Assembly: GCA_964566535.1 (NCBI GenBank)
Contig: CAZMIO010000001.1
Span: 62,001 to 126,000 of the forward strand
DNA length: 64,000 nucleotides
Direction of reading: 5' to 3'
From: an uncultured Methanosarcinales archaeon
Lineage (GTDB): Archaea; Nanobdellota; Nanobdellia; Woesearchaeales; CAZOXR01
The notes beneath the pieces are model-generated. The model made no database searches. It was given only the letters and a program-made list of their open reading frames with translations, and was not told where the DNA came from. A program made the translations under genes and the position numbers. This document shows positions 20,356 to 30,308 of the stretch, piece after piece (position 1 is the stretch's first letter; the number at the start of each line of letters is the position of its first letter).

Positions 20356-21243
20356 ATGACTATGGGGAACATAGAAGAGTACAAGAAAGCAGGTAAGATT
20401 GCAGCTGAAGCTTTAGCATTTGGTAAAGGTTTAATTGTTAAGGGTGGCTCAGTTCTAGATTTATGTAATAAAGTTGAGGAGAAGGTTTTTGAACTTGGTG
20501 GGGAACTTGCTTTTCCTGCACAGATTTCTATGAATGATATTGCAGCTCACTTTTGTCCAGAAGATGATGATGAATTGAAGTTTAACGATGAGCTAGTTAG
20601 TTTAGATGTTGGCGTTCATGTTAATGGTTTTATTGGAGACAATGCAGTTACGGTCGATTTGTCTGGAAAGAATTCTGATTTGGTTAAAGCTTCTAGGGAA
20701 GCACTTGAGAACGCACTTAAGGTTGTTAAGGTAGGTGTTCCTTTGAATGAGATTGGTAAGGTTATTGAAGAGACGATTAAAGGTTTTGGTTTTTCGCCTG
20801 TTAAGAATCTGTCTGGTCACGGTTTAGGAGAATTTGATGTTCATTGTAGGCCTACTGTACCCAACTTTGATAATGGTGATACAACTAAGTTAGAGAAAGG
20901 ACAAGTAATTGCAATTGAGCCTTTTGCTACAACTGGTGGTGGGCTAATAGCAGAGAAAGGAGATGCTTCTGTTTTTAATTTACTTGGGAAGAAACCTGTT
21001 AGGATTGGTTTTGTAAGGGAAATTATGAAACAGATTGAGAGATTTAATGGGTTACCTTTTACTACAAGGTGGTTGACTAAGAACTTTTCTGAATCGCAAG
21101 TTAATTATGCTTTGAATCAGTTTAAGTTGCTTGGGATATTGAAAGAGTATCCTCCGCTTGTTGAGAAACAGAATGGATTGGTTAGTCAGGCAGAACATTC
21201 TGTTATTGTTGATGATGAGATTTTAGTTATTACTAATGTTTGA
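20356..21243 (+). CDS. map: Type II methionine aminopeptidase
   Basis: NDIAAHF, DVGVHVNGFIGDNA, NLSGHG, AIEPFAT, SQAEHS. Confidence 0.96.
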   Translation: MTMGNIEEYKKAGKIAAEALAFGKGLIVKGGSVLDLCNKVEEKVFELGGELAFPAQISMNDIAAHFCPEDDDELKFNDELVSLDVGVHVNGFIGDNAVTVDLSGKNSDLVKASREALENALKVVKVGVPLNEIGKVIEETIKGFGFSPVKNLSGHGLGEFDVHCRPTVPNFDNGDTTKLEKGQVIAIEPFATTGGGLIAEKGDASVFNLLGKKPVRIGFVREIMKQIERFNGLPFTTRWLTKNFSESQVNYALNQFKLLGILKEYPPLVEKQNGLVSQAEHSVIVDDEILVITNV

Positions 21244-22279: not shown

Positions 22280-23176
22280 ATGGTAGATGATGAACTATAC
22301 TTTAGGTTAACTAGACCTGGATTTGATGAAATTAGGGAGTTTTCTTTAGATACTAGTGTATTAGAAGCGGAGATTACTGCACAGACTGGTTATGGTTTAG
22401 ACCCTCAAATTGGGCCTGTTGCATGGTCAGATGGTTCTGATTTAGAGAGATATGAAGATTTAGTTCCCGAATTTGCTAAAGCGGAATCTATATCGCCTAA
22501 TCGTATTAAGGTAGGATTTCATACTATTGACTTACAGAGAATGGTTGAAGAACATGAAGATGAATTAGCACCTCATGCAATGGAAGTTAGAAATGTTAAA
22601 GAACTTGAAGATCATATGTTAAAGGCATACCAAGTTGCATATGCTAATTATGTGCGTGGAAAGAGAAACTATGGCAGTAGTTTTCCAGATAAAAGTTGTG
22701 GAATCTCATCAAGTAATGTAATGTTATCTCTTATCGAGCTAGGGTATACGAATGCATTATTTGTGGCAAACTCAGAATATGATCATTCTTATGTTGTGCT
22801 TCCTTTTGTTATGAAGGATTCTGGCTATAAAGGAGTGATTGTTGTTGATCCTGCTTCAGAACAGTTGTGGTCAGAAGAATCTGGGAAACCAAGAAATGCA
22901 GTATTTGTTAGAGAAGGTAGTGATTGGGATTACAAAACAATGTGGGCTGGTGAGGGCCAAGAATTAGAGACTGATGAAGGGCAAAGAAGGAACTTATTCC
23001 CAGAGACTTTTGTTGGACTTAAAGATGTTGGAAGATATTTGGATGAAGAAGATTTGGACCCTTTTGAAAAATTAATTATTACAAAAATGGCTGATGAGTA
23101 TGGGGGCGAAGTTGAGCCATTAGAAGCTGCATATGATAATCCAGTAAGACTGAGGAATCTTCATGACGCGAGATAA
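22280..23176 (+). CDS. Putative Cys-His-Asp (transglutaminase/papain-like) enzyme, paralog 1
   Basis: FPDKSCGISS, YDHSYVV, VVDPASEQLW; colinear with the next two ORFs. Confidence 0.65.
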   Translation: MVDDELYFRLTRPGFDEIREFSLDTSVLEAEITAQTGYGLDPQIGPVAWSDGSDLERYEDLVPEFAKAESISPNRIKVGFHTIDLQRMVEEHEDELAPHAMEVRNVKELEDHMLKAYQVAYANYVRGKRNYGSSFPDKSCGISSSNVMLSLIELGYTNALFVANSEYDHSYVVLPFVMKDSGYKGVIVVDPASEQLWSEESGKPRNAVFVREGSDWDYKTMWAGEGQELETDEGQRRNLFPETFVGLKDVGRYLDEEDLDPFEKLIITKMADEYGGEVEPLEAAYDNPVRLRNLHDAR

Positions 23177-24097
23177 TTTGTTTTTTGATTTGAGTGGAAT
23201 TGGATTAGATGGAGTTAGAGAGAGATGTCTTTAGTTCCAGGTATGCTGGAGAAAGAGATTGCTAGGCTGAATGGTGGGTTGAATTTGGGTTCTCAAGAAA
23301 GTGTTGATGGTATGAGCAGAGAAGATGAAGAGCATTATGGGAGGTTGATTCCGTTTTTTAGTGAAGGAGTATATCCCATGAGGGCACTTCATGAATTAGT
23401 TCAAACTAGTCCAGCTATTGATGTTCCGCATGCTATGTTAGTTAATGATGTGGCTGAGTTAGAAGGGCATATGTTAAAAGCATACCAGGTTGCTTATGCG
23501 CACTATGCGCTTGCGAAGAAAGATGGAGATCTTGATGGGTTTCCTTATTCGTTTTGCGGTTTATCAGCCGGTAATGTTGTACTTTCATTGTTTGCACATG
23601 GTTATACTAATGCTGCTTTTGCAGAGAGTAAGACAGGTGGACATTGTTACCCTGTTTTGCCCTTTGTTATGGGTGATGGTAGTGGAGTTAATGGTGTAAT
23701 TGGTATTGATCCAACATCAGATCAATTGTGGAAAAGAATAACAGATGATGAGCTTGCTGAATTTGCTTCTGATGGTCAAATTCCTCCAACTTCTGATGAA
23801 TTATGGGGACCAATTGAAAGTTATGAAGAAATACCAGGACCGAGAAATGCTGTTTTTATAGCTCAGGGAGATGATTGGGTGTATGATGCGACATGGAGAG
23901 AAGGAGAGAATCTTTTTCCAGACTTTGTTACTGGTTATGCTGCACTTAGAGAATTTGTTTTGGATAGAGATAGGTGGCAATGGTCCCCTCTTGCAGTTTT
24001 TAAGGATATTCGACACAATGGAGCTTTTGAGGGTGGTGAAAAGTATCTTCAAGCTGCGTATGGCAATCAAGTAAGATTAGGTGAGATTAATGGTTGA
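23163..24097 (+). CDS. Putative Cys-His-Asp enzyme, paralog 2; N-terminus out of frame at an (AG)4 tract (open ORF 23225-24097)
   Basis: [27 protein letters not shown]; homologous N-terminus MTRDNLFFDLSGIGLDGVRE starts at 23163 in another frame. Confidence 0.65.
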
Positions 24098-24914
24098 AGA
24101 TAGTTTATTTTTTGATTTATCAAGGATTGGACTAGATGAAGTTAGGCCTGTTTCTTTAGTTACAAGTACGTTGGAGGAGGAGGTTGCTGGGCAGAATGGA
24201 AACTTAGATTTGGGTTCTAGAACCAGTGTCCTAGGTATGGATCCAGATGATGAAAGACATTATAATGAAATGGTACCATTTTACTACAGTTGGGGAAGTT
24301 TACCTATTGATCGGCTCGTAGAATTAATTGAGAAGAATGAAGATAAATTAGATCCTCACTCAATGTTAGTAGAAGGTGTTGAAGAGTTAGAAGAACATAT
24401 GTTGAGAATTTATCAAACTGCATATGCACATTATGCTCTTGGACTAAAATCTAATATCAAAGGAACATTTCCTGATGAATGTTGTGGTATATCTGCTAAT
24501 AATCTTGCTGTTTCATTGATGGACCATGGGTACACAAATGCAGTTTATATACATAATGGTCTTTATGATCATTGTTATGTTGTTGTTCCTTTTGTTATGA
24601 AAGATGGTAGCTTTAAAGGGTCAATTATAGTTGATCCTACATCTGATCAACTTTGGTCTAAGTTGAATAAACAACCTAAAAATGCTGTTTTTGTAGTTCC
24701 GGAAAAAGGGTGGGAATATCGTACTAATTGGAGGTCTGGCAGTGACCTTGTACCTCAAGATGTTGTTTCACTTGGTTTGATAAATGAATACATTAAAGGG
24801 AAAAAAACCGGAACTGTTTTTTCAACGGATGTTGCTAAGTCTTATCTTGCTCCAAATGCTCGTGAATATTTTGAAGCTGCTTTTGCTAATCCAATGAGAT
24901 TAGATGCCGCTTAA
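24090..24914 (+). CDS. Putative Cys-His-Asp enzyme, paralog 3
   Basis: [27 protein letters not shown]; start MVEDSLFF matches paralog 1 MVDDELYF. Confidence 0.65.
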
Positions 24915-24958
24915 CAAAAGGTTTAAAAGGTATGAAAACCTCCTTTTTATTATTGAAA

Positions 24959-25336
24959 ATGATAGAATTAGACTTTAAGAAACAAAACGGAATGGTTCCT
25001 GCTATTGTGCAGGATGTAAAAACCGGTCAAGTGCTGATGCTTGCTTATATGAATGAGGAAGCATGGCAGAATACTTTAGAGACTGGTAAGGCTCACTATT
25101 ACAGTAGATCAAGGAATAAGCAATGGATGAAGGGAGAAGAATCTGGTAATATTCAGTTAGTTAAGGAAGTTTTTGTTGATTGTGATGAAGATACTGTTTT
25201 ACTTAAAGTAGAACAAGTTGGAGATGCTGCTTGTCACAAAGGTTTTGAATCATGTTTTTTCAGGAAAGTTTCAGACGGTAAAGTTGAGGAAGTTGGGAGA
25301 AAGGTTTTTAATCCAGAAGAGGTTTATAAGAAGTAA
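24959..25336 (+). CDS. hisI: Phosphoribosyl-AMP cyclohydrolase
   Basis: [35 protein letters not shown]. Confidence 0.95.
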
Positions 25337-25337
25337 A

Positions 25338-26216
25338 ATGGCTGAAAAAATATTAAAATTAGGAATTCCAAAAGGTTCTTTACAAGAATCTACTATCCGG
25401 ATGTTTAAGAAAGCAGGCTTTAACATTACAGTACCTGAAAGGTCATATTTTCCAGACATAGATGATCCTGAGATTGAGTGTATGTTAATTCGAGCTCAAG
25501 AGATGGCAAGGTATGTTGAGGATGGCATACTAGACTGTGGGCTAACTGGAAAAGATTGGGTTGAGGAGAATCGAGCTGATGTTCGGGAAGTTGCTAACTT
25601 AGTTTATGCTAAGCAAGGTTTACGAAAAGTTAAATGGGTACTTGCTGTTCCTAATGATTCTGATATTAAGTCAGTTAAGGACCTAGAAGGTAAAAGGATT
25701 GCAACAGAAGCTGTTAATATTGCTAAGGATTATCTTGAGAAGAATGGAGTTAAGGCCGAGGTTGAGTTTTCATGGGGAGCTACTGAAGTTAAACCTCCAA
25801 AATTAGCTGATGCTATTGTTGAGATTACTGAGACTGGTTCTTCGTTAAGAGCTAATAATCTTCGAATTGTTGAGACTATATTAGAGTCAACAACTCGGTT
25901 TATTTCAAATAAAGATGCATGGTATGATTCTTGGAAGCAGAAGAAGATGAGTCAGATTGCTATGTTGTTAAAAGGTGCGATTGATGCTGAAGGTAAGGTT
26001 GGGATGATGTTGAACATTAAGGAAGAGAAGCTAGAGGGTATTTTGAAGGTGCTTCCTGCTTTACAGAAACCAACAGTTTCTAACTTGAGTGAGAAAGGAT
26101 GGCTTGCTATTAATACTATACTTGATGAGAATATTGTAAAGAGCATAATTCCTAAGTTGAAGGATGCAGGGGCTACTGGAATTGTTGAGTATCCGCTGAA
26201 TAAGATTATTTTGTAA
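25338..26216 (+). CDS. hisG: ATP phosphoribosyltransferase (long form)
   Basis: [33 protein letters not shown]-terminal regulatory domain. Confidence 0.96.
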
Positions 26217-26731: not shown

Positions 26732-27562
26732 ATGCAAGAACCAAGTTGCGTGCAAGAAGCACGTCAAAGATCAAGTGAAGGTTATAATACGGGAAATGAT
26801 TTGACTACTGGTATTATTAGAGGACAGTATGCCCTCGATGCGTTAGAAACTTTAGTAAATCCTCCAAGTGATAGACCTTTACGTATTCTAGAAGTTGGAA
26901 TAGGGTATGAAAATGACATGTTTAAGTGTCCAAATGATTGTCCTTATGAACCATACAGAATAAGTTCGTATCTCGAATTTAGAGGTATAGATTACCAGAT
27001 GGTTATTGTGGATTTGGATGAGAGGGTTGTTGAAGATTTGAAAAGAAGAACTACAGTATATGTAAGTTCAAATCAATTAGATACTTTTAGACATAGGCCT
27101 ACATGGGAACAGTACCTTTGTTGGACAAATCAAGAAGGTAAATCCTGGACGGCATCTGTTTCAGGTCAATCTGTTAGAGGGAATGAACTAATTATATCTG
27201 ATGGTGCTCTAGCAACAGGGGATGCATATGAGTTTTTTGAAGCAGCTGCTGTTCCTTCTTCTTTTAGATCTAAGATGGATAATGGAGAAGTAGTTGTTCT
27301 GCAGGGAGATGTTGCAACTGTTGATTTATCTGGGTATGATCCTTTTGATATGGTAGTATGCATGAACGTTCTATATCAGCTAGATAAAGATGGGCAAACA
27401 TTAGCATTATATAATATGGCCCGCGCACTTTCGATAGGAGGAGTATTAGTTATAGATAACTACGATTCAGAAGAGTTGATGAGAGAGTTAGGATTTCGTG
27501 TACAACACACTTTTCAAAAAGATAGGGCAACACATACTGTGGCCCTAAGAAGGTTTTTATAA
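26732..27562 (+). CDS. Class I SAM-dependent methyltransferase (CheR-like C-terminus)
   Basis: ILEVGIG, VDLD, QGDV, FDMVVCMNVLYQ, L..GGVLVI. Confidence 0.75.
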   Translation: MQEPSCVQEARQRSSEGYNTGNDLTTGIIRGQYALDALETLVNPPSDRPLRILEVGIGYENDMFKCPNDCPYEPYRISSYLEFRGIDYQMVIVDLDERVVEDLKRRTTVYVSSNQLDTFRHRPTWEQYLCWTNQEGKSWTASVSGQSVRGNELIISDGALATGDAYEFFEAAAVPSSFRSKMDNGEVVVLQGDVATVDLSGYDPFDMVVCMNVLYQLDKDGQTLALYNMARALSIGGVLVIDNYDSEELMRELGFRVQHTFQKDRATHTVALRRFL

Positions 27563-29002
27563 CTTAACTTCCTCTTCTTTTCCTGTTTTCATGTCTTTTA
27601 TTTTGTAGGAGCCTTGCTTGATTTCGTTTTCTCCTAAGACTATTGTTTTCTTTGCTTTGATTGAGTTTGCGTACTTGAACTGGTTTCTTAGGTTACGTTC
27701 TGAGAGATCAACATCTACTCTGTTTTTTTCTCTTAGTTTTGTTGCTAACTCTAGTGCTTGTTGTTTTACATCTCCAATTGTGATTATGTAGATGTCTGGA
27801 GCTAGGTTTATTTTTGGTAAGAGGTCTTTTTCTTTAAGTAAGAGAGTTAGAGTTGAGTAGCCTAATCCGAATCCAGTTGCTGCTGTTGGTTCTCCTTTGA
27901 ACTGCTCTACCATTTTATCGTAACGGCCTCCTCCTGCGATTGCTCTGAACTTTTCTTCTTTGTCAAAACATTCGAAAACGGTTCCAGTGTAGTATGCTAA
28001 GCCTCTTGCAGTTGAGAGATCGACTTGGATGAATTCTTTTCTGCTCTTTAGAAGGTTTAGGATTGCTTTTATTTCATTTAATCCGTTTTCTGCTTCTTCG
28101 TTTAAGTCAGATGTCTTTATTTCTTTGATATTTGTTATGTTTAGTGTGGATGTGATCTTAGCTATCTTTTCATCGTCTAAGTCTAGCTTTTTTAGTTCGT
28201 TTAGAAATTCAATGTCTGATAATTTTGATCTTTTGTCTATTATTCTTATTACATCATTTATTATGTCCTTGTTTACTATGTCTAATAGTAGTCCTTCTAG
28301 GAGCTTTCTGTTGTTTATTTTGATGAAAAAATCTTTGCTTGTTAATCCTAGGCTTTGTAGTGAGTCTATTAATAGGTTTAGGATTTCAGCATCTGCCTCT
28401 GGTTTGTCTGAGCCGAACAATTCAACGCCGTATTGGTAGAACTCTCTTAGTCTTCCTGTTTGTGGACGTTCATAACGCCACATTCTGGTTAAGTAGAACC
28501 ACTTTACTGGTTTTGGGAGCTCTTTTTGCTTTTCGATGAACATTCTTGTAGCTGATACTGTTATGTCAAACCTTAAGCCTAGCTCTTCACTGCCTTTTTT
28601 TTCTATTATGAAGATTTGGTCTCTTATCTCTTGGCCTTGTTTTACTGTTAGAAGGTTGGTGTTTTCGAATGCTGGGGCTTCGATTTGCTTAAAATTGTAG
28701 TTTTCAGCGGTTTTCATGAATTTCCTGAATATTGTCTTTCTTTGCTCCATATCTTCAGGGTAGAAATCTGATGTTCCTTTGGCTTTTTGGAATTGTTTGG
28801 ATACTTCTTTGTCTAGTTTTTGGATTGTTTTTTCTGTTTTCTCTGGAAGGTTCTTTATGGGGGCCTCTCTGCCGGTCACTAGACGCCTTACAGAGTCCCT
28901 AATTGCTTCAGAGATGCTAGAATACATGCCTACGTCTACTAGCATGTTTAGTTCTTGAATGAGTTCGTCAGTTAGCCTTATTTGTTTAGTTTGCATTACC
29001 AT
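27557..29002 (-). CDS. hisS: Histidine--tRNA ligase with N-terminal ribbon-helix-helix domain
   Basis: KGTSDFYP, WRYERPQTGRLREFYQ, RGLAYYTG, GGGRYD, anticodon-binding domain; extra N-terminal QIRL...LVDVGMYSSISEAIRDSVRRL. Confidence 0.95.
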   Translation of the reverse strand: MVMQTKQIRLTDELIQELNMLVDVGMYSSISEAIRDSVRRLVTGREAPIKNLPEKTEKTIQKLDKEVSKQFQKAKGTSDFYPEDMEQRKTIFRKFMKTAENYNFKQIEAPAFENTNLLTVKQGQEIRDQIFIIEKKGSEELGLRFDITVSATRMFIEKQKELPKPVKWFYLTRMWRYERPQTGRLREFYQYGVELFGSDKPEADAEILNLLIDSLQSLGLTSKDFFIKINNRKLLEGLLLDIVNKDIINDVIRIIDKRSKLSDIEFLNELKKLDLDDEKIAKITSTLNITNIKEIKTSDLNEEAENGLNEIKAILNLLKSRKEFIQVDLSTARGLAYYTGTVFECFDKEEKFRAIAGGGRYDKMVEQFKGEPTAATGFGLGYSTLTLLLKEKDLLPKINLAPDIYIITIGDVKQQALELATKLREKNRVDVDLSERNLRNQFKYANSIKAKKTIVLGENEIKQGSYKIKDMKTGKEEEVKL

Positions 29003-29021
29003 TGTAATGCTTATGTAATGC
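28993..29021. promoter_or_regulatory. Putative operator O1 overlapping the hisS start codon
   Basis: GCATTAC-CATT-GTAATGC-TTAT-GTAATGC: palindrome plus a third half-site at 11-bp spacing. Confidence 0.7.
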
Positions 29022-29078
29022 TTTAACTATATAAATATTGCGGTTTTTTGGGCTTAAGTTTGGTTGTTTTTGGTTAGT

Positions 29079-29107
29079 GCATTACTATCGTAATGCTTAC
29101 GTAATGT
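29079..29107. promoter_or_regulatory. Putative operator O2 upstream of the hisS TATA box
   Basis: GCATTAC-TATC-GTAATGC-TTAC-GTAATGT; same architecture as O1, 86 bp away. Confidence 0.7.
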
Positions 29108-29256
29108 GCTGATAATAACTGTTTAAGTCCCAGATTTATTCGTAGGATTTTGGTTGGTTTGAGGGCGTGTTTGGTAATTGCATTCAGTATCCAAATCAAC
29201 CAAAAGTTTTATATATAATCACTACTTGCTAGGTATTACATGGAGGATTGATATTA

Positions 29257-29583
29257 ATGGAATTAGGACAAACAGTTAGAAATGCAGTGCGTACAGTGGC
29301 ATTAGGAACATTAGTTGCAATTGCAGCTTGTAGTGCAACAACAAGTGGACCGGGAAATAGAGTTGGAGAAGCAGGTTTACCAGCAGCATTTAGTGGTTAT
29401 ACTTTTAAGAAAGCAGGAGATGCTCGGAGAATAAATCAATCGTTTGAGGCTCTTCAGGCTCAAGGTTATGCAAATGACGTTGGAGCATACTTAGAAGCTG
29501 TTGATAGAGCAGATGGTCAAGATGATGACCATGTTAATGCAATTTATGTAGCAAAGGTAAATAGTCAAATAGATCGAAACTAA
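29257..29583 (+). CDS. Hypothetical lipoprotein-like protein
   Basis: GGAGG Shine-Dalgarno; RTVALGTLVAIAAC signal. Confidence 0.6.
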   Translation: MELGQTVRNAVRTVALGTLVAIAACSATTSGPGNRVGEAGLPAAFSGYTFKKAGDARRINQSFEALQAQGYANDVGAYLEAVDRADGQDDDHVNAIYVAKVNSQIDRN

Positions 29584-29606: not shown

Positions 29607-30308
29607 TTAATTAGAATTAATTTGTTTTAAGTCTTTTAAATCAATCTTCTCTTTGTAAATAGCCATTCCTAGAGCAGAATTAATGTTATTTTCCTCTAAT
29701 TCTTTTATTTCTTCTAGCGTTGTTATTCCGCCTGCTGCAGTAATATCGTTAGTAGTTGAATTTCTTAGTTTTTTGAAGAAATCTAAGTTTGTTCCTTGTA
29801 ACATGCCTTCTTTGTCGACGTATGTGCATAGGAATTCGTCGCAGTAGGGTTCTAACTCTTTGATTACTTTGAATATGTTAATTCCAGTACCTTGCCTCCA
29901 GCCTTTGATTACCACTTCTTCTTTTTTTGTGTCTAGGGCTATGATTATTTTGTTTTTTCCAATTGTTTTGTTTAAATCTTTTAGAAAATCAAAATCAATG
30001 TTATTATCTTTGAAAACTGAACTGCTGATAATTACTTTTTTAGCGTCTAAATCAATTAATTCTTTTGCTTTTTCTATTGTTCTTATTCCGCCGCCAACTC
30101 TGCAATTTATTTTTTTGATTATTTCTTTGATTAGGTTGATGTTGTCTGCTTCTCCCTTAGCTGCATCTAAGTCGATTAATTGAATTTGTTTGAAAGGTTT
30201 GAATTTTTCTATTAAAGAATCAATATCTGCTTCTTCTAAGGCTTTTTTTTCTCCTTGAATTAGCTGAACTGCTTTGCCGTTCATTAAATCTATGCATGGA
30301 AATATCAT
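29607..30308 (-). CDS. hisA: ProFAR isomerase HisA
   Basis: IFPCIDLMNGKAVQL, IDLDAA, VGGGIR, DKEGMLQG, AAGGI. Confidence 0.9.
   Translation of the reverse strand: MIFPCIDLMNGKAVQLIQGEKKALEEADIDSLIEKFKPFKQIQLIDLDAAKGEADNINLIKEIIKKINCRVGGGIRTIEKAKELIDLDAKKVIISSSVFKDNNIDFDFLKDLNKTIGKNKIIIALDTKKEEVVIKGWRQGTGINIFKVIKELEPYCDEFLCTYVDKEGMLQGTNLDFFKKLRNSTTNDITAAGGITTLEEIKELEENNINSALGMAIYKEKIDLKDLKQINSN

Follow-up and report, generated by a model that had tools for sequence, protein, structure and literature searches.

The question raised by this locus is whether a histidyl-tRNA synthetase (HisRS) whose N-terminus bears a domain of the ribbon-helix-helix (RHH) kind controls its own gene. We analysed a window of 64,000 nucleotides (the whole stretch of DNA presented here) from a genome of 1.45 Mb, for which an earlier note had proposed that such a fusion, with approximately 70 extra N-terminal residues, represses hisS through twin operators, possibly by looping, at a locus flanked by histidine biosynthesis genes. 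Sequence analysis leads us to conclude, with a probability of about 0.8, that HisRS represses its own transcription by means of an apparently captured RHH head and operator. The gene has the following parts:

27557..29002, minus strand: hisS with an N-terminal RHH domain, a single open frame of 481 aa and the only hisS of the genome
28871..29002, minus strand: RHH head, aa 1-44, supported by Pfam RHH_1, AlphaFold, Foldseek and conservation
28796..28870, minus strand: linker, aa 45-69, a low-confidence loop plus a helix (54-68)
27560..28795, minus strand: HisRS catalytic and anticodon-binding domains, of the Thermoplasma/trypanosome-like type, with motif 3 GFGLGY lacking Arg

The junction and both operator arrays (see below) are found with 0 differences and 0 gaps in contigs of the runs X5, X6 and X7, which come from three studies; thus, no stop codon or frameshift separates the RHH domain from HisRS. 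A contig of X9 spans both arrays, and the junction lies outside its coverage. In public databases the fusion proteins are named merely histidine--tRNA ligase, and a literature search of main texts that covered few subscription papers returned no description of an RHH-HisRS fusion.

The assignment of the head as an RHH domain, expected from the earlier note, was borne out by the profile and structure comparisons. Residues 1-51 alone score 21.5 bits with Pfam RHH_1, against a cut-off of 20.5; the score within the whole protein is 17.2, under the cut-off, and relatives score 23.9-35 bits. AlphaFold predicts for the head, with a pLDDT of 94.4, an extended N-terminus followed by two helices (12-23 and 30-43), i.e., the strand-helix-helix fold; T5, Q7 and R9 belong to the predicted recognition strand. 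The monomer models contain no beta-strand in the head, which is expected because the RHH sheet forms in the dimer. The best Foldseek matches are the RHH domains of ParD and NikR (probability 0.98, TM 0.85, E 0.17), and a search of the ESM Atlas with aa 1-110 gave no usable feature match. Two of these values count against the autorepression model: the Pfam cut-off is passed only narrowly, with the head excised, and the Foldseek E value is above 0.001. Residues Q7, I8, R9, L10 and T11 are invariant across 31 fusions. Judged from the coding sequences, purifying selection acts on the head no less strongly than on the enzyme: pN is 0.035-0.28 versus a pS of 0.31-0.73, and 9 of 11 pairs have a lower pN in the head than in the body.

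The linker varies among relatives in length (26-52 aa) and in sequence, and a comparison with the tails of the free RHH proteins described below detected no homology (hhalign probability 0.3%). An intact VapB-type antitoxin was rejected, given a linker with no recognisable relation to that toxin-binding tail and the absence of a PIN gene of the partner family from this genome and from the surroundings of all fusion loci. The cell-division regulator CdrS was likewise rejected (NF058555, 24.8 versus a cut-off of 100).

The remainder of the protein, residues 70-481, is HisRS (TIGR00442, 384.9 bits versus a cut-off of 286.75), with motif 2, the RGLxYY loop and the anticodon-binding domain (PF03129, 48.5 bits). 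The best solved relatives are HisRS of Thermoplasma acidophilum (1WU7, E 2e-81) and of trypanosomes (3HRI and 3HRK, 2e-69), which share the HisRS body and a motif 3 without Arg and differ in that the RHH head is absent. The label Thermoplasma/trypanosome-like rests on the 1WU7/3HRI alignments, because a literature search covering few subscription papers found no paper on the motif-3 subtype. HisZ was rejected (TIGR00443, 207.6 versus 271.65), and the neighbouring HisG bears the long-form C-terminal domain. We infer that the fusion protein aminoacylates tRNA-His, since it is the product of the sole hisS here and in 25 of the 26 other fusion genomes. A full-length dimer prediction scored 0.86, compared to 0.00 for the best control, with contacts agreeing to at least 93% and a pLDDT of no less than 83; of the known pairs 20 of 30 attain this mark, and of the single chains 1 of 23. 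The model reproduces the textbook HisRS dimer, probably through similarity to known structures. Residues 67-82, right after the linker, lie in the modelled dimer interface, and the confident contacts name no residue before 67, residues left unnamed being uncertain in such predictions.

The promoter region of hisS contains the following elements:

28993..29021, minus strand: predicted proximal operator, with heptamers at 29021-29015, 29010-29004 and 28999-28993
29028..29035, minus strand: TATA box TTTATATA, recognised by sequence, preceded by a purine-rich BRE-like stretch (~29036-29046)
29079..29107, minus strand: distal array, again with three heptamers, located 86 bp upstream and present at no other of the 27 fusion loci

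On the coding strand the proximal array reads GCATTAC-ATAA-GCATTAC-AATG-GTAATGC and spans the ATG codons at 29002 and 28996; its heptamers, with centres 11 bp apart, occupy the stretch from the TATA box to the first codons. The distal array reads ACATTAC-GTAA-GCATTAC-GATA-GTAATGC. Each is 29 nt long, and the two are 90% alike. The twin arrays and their spacing, 86 nt between arrays and 11 bp between half-sites, are thus as the earlier note had described them. The palindrome pattern with up to two mismatches has 2 matches in the window versus 0.16 expected; in the whole genome, triple 11-bp arrays occur only at these two places under both motif definitions given below, so that hisS carries all of them. 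With a matrix derived from the sites of 22 further fusion loci, the two arrays reach 34.6 and 32.3 bits, compared to 14.9 bits for the next independent site. The genome holds no other member of the same RHH family, the next match reaching 19.6 bits versus 86.4; therefore, no other protein of this family is present to bind the sites in trans. In archaea the distance from TATA box to start site is characteristic, and by this spacing we infer that transcription starts near the first ATG, i.e., that the mRNA is leaderless.

Comparison with relatives ties the array to the fusion. The RHH-HisRS fusion was found in 27 of the 401 genomes of the order (Woesearchaeota, going by database labels), in 8 families. 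All 27 fusion loci have heptamer half-sites in 11-bp phase directly 3' of the TATA box, with three in a row in 25 of 27 by the strict motif and in 27 of 27 by a looser one, which adds GTTAC/GTAAC and was defined after the two exceptions were seen; triple arrays were found at none of the 64 unfused hisS loci. These loci are related by descent, and the counts are non-independent events. Among 12 metagenome fusion loci, eight have a triple at -22/-11/0, two have a triple displaced upstream together with the TATA box, and two have an in-phase pair only. In 24 of 27 fusion loci a TATA-like box precedes the centre of the first half-site by 14-17 nt, and where a leader was gained (L092, L158 and L159) the array remains beside the TATA box, distant from the ATG. 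The heptamers are conserved while the spacers vary. L004 and L091 have lost the first ATG and retained GTAATG; in both, the middle half-site is flipped with the exact 11-bp phase kept, as expected of a DNA binder with two-fold symmetry. The half-sites of L092 form three direct repeats. All 25 fusions with Val at codon 2 use GTA there, versus 30% GTA in the enzyme bodies; this argument is weaker than its nominal value because GTA likewise encodes V22 in 23 of 26 fusions.

Both head and operator have counterparts outside hisS. Free-standing RHH genes of about 80 aa match the fusion head and its operator, carry the array on their own start (a pair in 31 of 40, a triple in 14 of 40), and in 33 of 40 cases lie beside a convergent (tail-to-tail) PIN gene. 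No free RHH gene adjoining hisS, i.e., no pre-fusion state, was seen among the free-RHH loci examined, which have short flanks. The same head is found on two HisRS subfamilies: in one pair the heads are 98% and the bodies 34% identical, and the bodies bearing the head are only 32-36% alike. In quick trees with AU tests, the heads form one group (SH-aLRT 92), whereas a common group is rejected for the fused bodies (AU p 1.3e-35), and so is a single clade for those of type A (AU p 1.5e-4). Since the heads group together and their bodies are scattered, the head was kept, or re-attached, when the body changed; its survival across two subfamilies points to selection for control of HisRS dosage in small-genome archaea. 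Head and operator were apparently taken from a toxin-antitoxin-type regulator.

We propose that hisS acquired the first half of an RHH gene encoding an autoregulated antitoxin of the VapB/ParD type, along with the promoter and operator of that gene, but neither its toxin-binding tail nor its PIN partner. The resulting protein would be a HisRS dimer of the normal kind to which two RHH heads are tethered by flexible linkers; the paired heads would bind one pseudo-palindromic heptamer each, (G/A)CATTAC in either orientation. Three such bound pairs, aligned at intervals of one helical turn in the stretch from the TATA box to the start site, would block assembly or opening of the initiation complex, and surplus HisRS would lower hisS transcription, providing negative feedback on the enzyme level. 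Three dimers of ~110 kDa, placed 11 bp (~37 A) apart, would be crowded, so that the stoichiometry may differ. The distal array here is probably extra binding capacity, for loading or cooperative spreading, and gating by a ligand is not assumed.

Several other readings of the same data should be considered. Repression could be substrate-gated, with histidine, His-AMP or tRNA-His setting the binding strength and transcription rising when charging capacity is short. The alanine-dependent repression by AlaRS and the proline switch of PutA (discussed below) are precedents, the interface residues 67-82 of the dimer model would offer a coupling route, and retention of the head through body exchange shows that it matters specifically on HisRS. 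A tight allosteric path is, however, hard to reconcile with the variable linker and with a head that works on such dissimilar bodies, and the regulon is limited to hisS; we therefore consider gating possible but tentative. A version in which an essential translation enzyme domesticated the operator and DNA-binding head of an antitoxin, in which occupancy of its active site by His, His-AMP or tRNA-His sets operator binding, and in which head plus promoter form a fixed socket for unrelated, horizontally acquired hisS genes, we regard as doubtful; if true, it would be a one-protein charging-feedback loop for archaea with leaderless mRNAs, which are barred from leader-based attenuation. The histidine pathway itself is not included: besides hisS, the host has homologues of hisI, G, D, B, F and A, and no array site was found at any of them, hisG was found in only 12 of the 26 other fusion genomes, and a his-pathway regulon was rejected for this genome, in which the only two triple arrays are both at hisS. 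As the earlier note stated, hisI/hisG (24932-26216) and hisA (29607-30308) do flank the gene; unrelated genes separate them from hisS, and its transcription unit excludes them.

Looping, in which HisRS dimers, or RHH pairs between dimers, bridge both arrays around the TATA box, is favoured by the placement of the arrays 8.2 turns apart on either side of the BRE/TATA region and by twin arrays at the free RHH gene L170. Between the two arrays, 1 of 21 heptamer positions and 3 of 8 spacer positions differ (P 0.052), and the flanks are unrelated, which suggests that the distal array is maintained. Conversely, 26 of the 27 fusion loci have no distal array within the upstream sequence covered (at most 400 nt, with 103 and 311 nt for two loci), nor has any of the 12 metagenome fusion loci, and the archaeal RHH mode described in PMC5569661 is cooperative spreading from a distal site; looping is unlikely here and fails as a general mechanism. 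Of the earlier proposal, the synthetase as repressor of its own gene stands as far as the fusion and the proximal array as hisS operator are concerned, on comparative evidence, and the general looping and the histidine biosynthesis link are dropped; the origin of the module in a free RHH gene paired with a PIN gene, and its retention through exchange of the HisRS body, go beyond that proposal. It is also conceivable that a toxin-antitoxin cassette landed ahead of hisS and gave it a promoter, with head and sites as leftovers without a regulatory role. Such pairs do adjoin several fusion loci (Fic/Doc-like and RHH-like genes upstream in f129/f132), and the many close relatives without the head, together with the scattered type-A bodies, allow repeated loss; purifying selection on the head, conserved heptamers amid variable spacers, a phase that survives flips and shifts, and retention across two subfamilies make this very improbable. 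Action of the repeats as RNA, with a hairpin over the start codon controlling translation, has least to recommend it and is hardly credible: transcription of the entire array would let the half-sites pair (-9.3 kcal/mol, z -2.8), but an mRNA beginning at the TATA-derived start would hold the third half-site only and has no fold (-0.1 kcal/mol), and neither the direct repeats of L092 nor arrays far from the ATG fit a hairpin.

Autorepression by HisRS has partial parallels in known systems. E. coli AlaRS binds DNA at the promoter of its gene, alaS, and represses it in a way that depends on alanine (Putney and Schimmel 1981, cited in PMC6918089 and PMC13046290), which is what we propose here, for another synthetase in another domain of life. 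The fusion has a dedicated RHH domain and a phased heptamer array; alanine dependence is a feature of AlaRS, for which no appended transcription-factor domain is described in the passages of these papers that concern it. PutA is an enzyme with an N-terminal RHH domain and an autogenous repressor with a proline switch (PMC5293562), and the present locus shares the N-terminal RHH and the predicted operator sites at its own promoter. PutA dimerises via its RHH domain, and its switch responds to proline and to membrane binding, whereas HisRS dimerises via its catalytic core, is a translation enzyme and apparently controls one promoter. The haloarchaeal RHH antitoxin NgVapB1 binds GTGCTAC-N4-GTATTAC (operator PPS1 of NgVapBC1) downstream of a TATA box and represses (PMC13488343), which is a precedent from experiment; RHH, the 7-4-7 layout, GTATTAC versus GCATTAC here, the position and, as proposed, autorepression are alike. 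NgVapBC1 differs by its toxin-binding tail, which HisRS replaces here, and by a co-transcribed VapC co-repressor; in the free RHH relatives the PIN gene is on the opposite strand. The archaeal viral proteins SvtR, AvtR and F55 are autorepressors that occlude the initiation complex at their promoters, as RHH dimers on arrays with distal sites, and differ in being, as presented in PMC5569661, stand-alone regulators with other site sequences and no enzyme fusion. Self-repressing synthetases are known chiefly from the one old E. coli case, and AlaS is, according to PMC13046290, the only example of perfect coupling cited by Hlavacek and Savageau. The archaeal case has a recognisable DNA-binding domain, a defined 29-bp predicted operator and a traceable donor, and is thus directly testable; it would also illustrate a route from a toxin-antitoxin-type regulator to the control unit of a housekeeping gene.

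One more open reading frame lies upstream of the arrays:

29248..29583, plus strand: divergent ORF, 111 aa, with a signal-peptide-like start and no Pfam match

It is not clearly part of the regulatory system, and has its own TATA-like box (~29207-29215) at a distance of approximately 100 bp from the distal array.

The fused hisS of the window and the elements of its promoter are as follows; an array consists of heptamer half-sites, (G/A)CATTAC in either orientation, with centres 11 bp apart.

27557-29002, minus strand: fused hisS, a single open frame of 481 aa
Residues 70-481 of its product, minus strand: HisRS part (TIGR00442 384.9 bits, cut-off 286.75)
29021-28993, minus strand: proximal array, three heptamers, ending over codons Met-Val-Met
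29035-29028, minus strand: TATA box TTTATATA, upstream of hisS
29107-29079, minus strand: distal array, upstream of hisS

The earlier note had described an RHH-like N-terminus on HisRS and twin arrays at the hisS promoter, and both were recovered. Residues 1-51 scored 21.5 bits with the Pfam RHH_1 model (cut-off 20.5; only 17.2 inside the whole protein), AlphaFold predicted an extended N-terminus followed by helices 12-23 and 30-43 (pLDDT 94.4), and Foldseek placed the RHH domains of ParD and NikR at the top ranks (probability 0.98, TM 0.85, E 0.17). No stop or frameshift separates this domain, the head, from the enzyme: contigs of runs X5, X6 and X7 (three studies) read through the junction and through both arrays without a single difference or gap, and contigs of run X9 cover both arrays, with the junction outside their coverage. 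The fused hisS is the only copy found in the source genome (91% complete). The best solved relatives of its enzyme body, the HisRS of Thermoplasma acidophilum and of trypanosomes, have in common with it a motif 3 without arginine. HisZ (207.6 bits versus a cut-off of 271.65) and CdrS were rejected as identities.

We estimate a probability of about 0.8 that paired heads on the three heptamers shut the hisS promoter when HisRS is in surplus. This reading relies on established RHH behaviour: RHH dimers place a two-stranded sheet in the major groove, bind arrays cooperatively and keep the archaeal initiation complex off the promoter by occlusion (PMC5569661). Paired heads would bind the heptamers on one helix face, downstream of the TATA box and ahead of the start site. 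The transcription start, which we take from the usual archaeal TATA spacing, would make the mRNA leaderless and thus leave no room for leader-based control; RNA from this start does not fold. The dimer model of the fused HisRS reproduced the usual interface. Three large dimers at 11-bp spacing would be crowded, so that pairing may take place between heads of different dimers, or the linker of 26-52 aa may supply the reach. Gating of operator binding by a ligand, supported here only by precedent, appears rather unlikely. The protein would work like E. coli AlaRS (as cited in PMC6918089 and PMC13046290) and is built like PutA (PMC5293562). A literature search, with subscription papers and supplements outside its scope, turned up no account of an RHH-synthetase fusion; the RHH-HisRS is real and conserved, and is apparently an undescribed variant of the self-repressing enzyme.

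The head profile was searched over 401 genomes of the order, and the best 150 of 288 matches were considered, the rest being weaker than E 4e-11. Among the matches listed, long fused frames occur in at least 26 genomes (the source genome and 25 others), plus G318, in which the head lies at a contig end; together these genomes represent at least eight families. It should be noted that the counts of 27 and 26 include five genomes flagged as unpublished (G209, G374, G207, G205, G132), and that no conclusion rests solely on them. The fusion is the sole hisS in 25 of the 26 other fusion genomes; G344 carries, besides the fusion, a second hisS (L151 on contig C1) that is unfused, divergent and contains an insertion. 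Of 80 loci examined in a metagenome scan, 12 were further fusion loci. All long proteins retrieved with a relative's head (31/31) were HisRS, labelled, where named, Woesearchaeota or Nanoarchaeota; a search of 401 genomes sampled from the class found no HisRS fusion outside the order.

The expected co-occurrence of array and fusion was upheld. Half-site pairs in 11-bp phase are present at 27/27 fusion loci and triples at 25/27 when the motif is kept strict, as AT(T/C)AC or its complement (27/27 with a motif widened after the two exceptions had been seen), compared to no triples and three pairs, each more than 100 nt upstream, at 64 unfused hisS loci; the fusion loci are kin, and their counts are therefore not independent events. 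Among the 12 metagenome fusions, eight have triples at -22/-11/0, two have triples moved upstream, and two have an in-phase pair only. Three features suggest that the site acts at the DNA level: L004 and L091 have an inverted middle heptamer in unchanged phase, the array remains next to the TATA box in three loci that gained a leader (L092, L158, L159), and a TATA-like box lies 14-17 nt ahead of the first half-site centre in 24/27 loci. Where a fusion has Val at codon 2, it is always encoded by GTA (25/25), versus 30% in enzyme bodies, yet V22 is also GTA in 23/26. Purifying selection acts on the head, whose pN is lower than that of the enzyme body in 9/11 pairs.

The two hisS arrays are the only triple arrays in the source genome; a matrix built from 22 other loci scored them at 34.6 and 32.3 bits, and the next independent site at 14.9. 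Two wider claims found no general support. The distal array is not general, being present in 1/27 fusion loci and absent from all 12 metagenome fusions; in the source genome it may still be used, since the heptamers of the two arrays differ at 1/21 positions and the spacers at 3/8 (P 0.052), and one free-standing RHH gene (L170) also has twin arrays. A tie to histidine biosynthesis was not supported, as the site is found at none of the genome's his-pathway genes. Among the other fusion genomes, hisG was found in 12/26 and was not found in G025 (one contig, 99% complete). The source genome has scattered histidine biosynthesis genes (hisI/G, hisA, hisD/B, hisF; contigs C1 and C10).

The head appears on more than one kind of body. 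In G347, G313 and G209 it is joined to a second HisRS subfamily, 32-36% identical to other bodies and with Arg in motif 3 in G347 and G209; G347 and G266 have heads that are 98% identical and bodies that are 34% identical. This second type accounts for 10/36 protein clusters and 4/12 metagenome loci, which makes a single misassembly unlikely. Monophyly was rejected for all fused bodies (41 rows, AU p 1.3e-35) and for the 22 first-type bodies alone (35 rows, AU p 1.5e-4), both tests using quick trees of thinned sets, from which two long branches and G318 had been left out. Either hisS bodies were replaced while the head and promoter stayed in place, or the head itself was transferred; head losses in unfused relatives are also possible.

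Most closely related to the head are RHH genes that stand alone and encode about 80 aa. Their own start is covered by the same array (pair in 31/40, triple in 14/40), and a PIN gene lies tail-to-tail with 33/40 of them. In the head tree, the 26 fused heads group together within the free ones (SH-aLRT 92, 43 columns). An experimental precedent for the donor is the haloarchaeal RHH antitoxin NgVapB1, which binds GTGCTAC-N4-GTATTAC downstream of its own TATA box and represses (PMC13488343). In a sub-clade whose heads have Val in place of Thr at position 5, heptamer position 2 is T in 25/28 half-sites, compared to 2/86 for Thr-5 heads; this amounts to a single change at the level of a clade, and it fits protein-DNA co-variation without proving it. 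No homology of the fused linker to the free RHH tail was detectable. In G632, which belongs to a different order of the class, a calcineurin-like metallophosphoesterase (L153:2529-3539; relatives P0123 and P0109) bears a head of this kind together with a two-box operator, so fusion of the cassette has happened more than once.

An antitoxin identity for the fused product was rejected; a search of the source genome found no PIN of the partner family and no further RHH of the head's family. In 33/40 free RHH loci (L031-L035, L038 and others), the RHH gene and its PIN partner converge with overlapping stops instead of being co-transcribed, an uncommon arrangement for type II toxin-antitoxin genes. 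In L170 (the locus with twin arrays), L176 and L178, free RHH genes of 74-75 aa with heads near the fused type converge with an SRP-receptor-like gene (FtsY-like, judged by eye) and not with a PIN gene.

By weak Pfam matches, fused hisS is directly preceded by a pair of genes, one Fic/Doc-like and one RHH-like, at L073:2576-3149 and at its equivalents in fusion loci f129 and f132; antitoxin/PIN-like pairs flank hisS, by eye, in G347 and G313. A methionine-aminopeptidase-like gene (Peptidase_M24; window 20356-21243), convergent to hisS in the source genome, is near hisS in several fusion loci, marking the ancestral site; in the source genome the two are separated by inserted genes, hisI/hisG among them. 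Three tandem paralogues at 22280-24914 (298, 290 and 277 aa) have no Pfam match; their conserved Cys, His and Asp are, by eye, suggestive of a papain/transglutaminase-like triad, and their look-alikes in the ESM Atlas are unnamed bacterial clusters.
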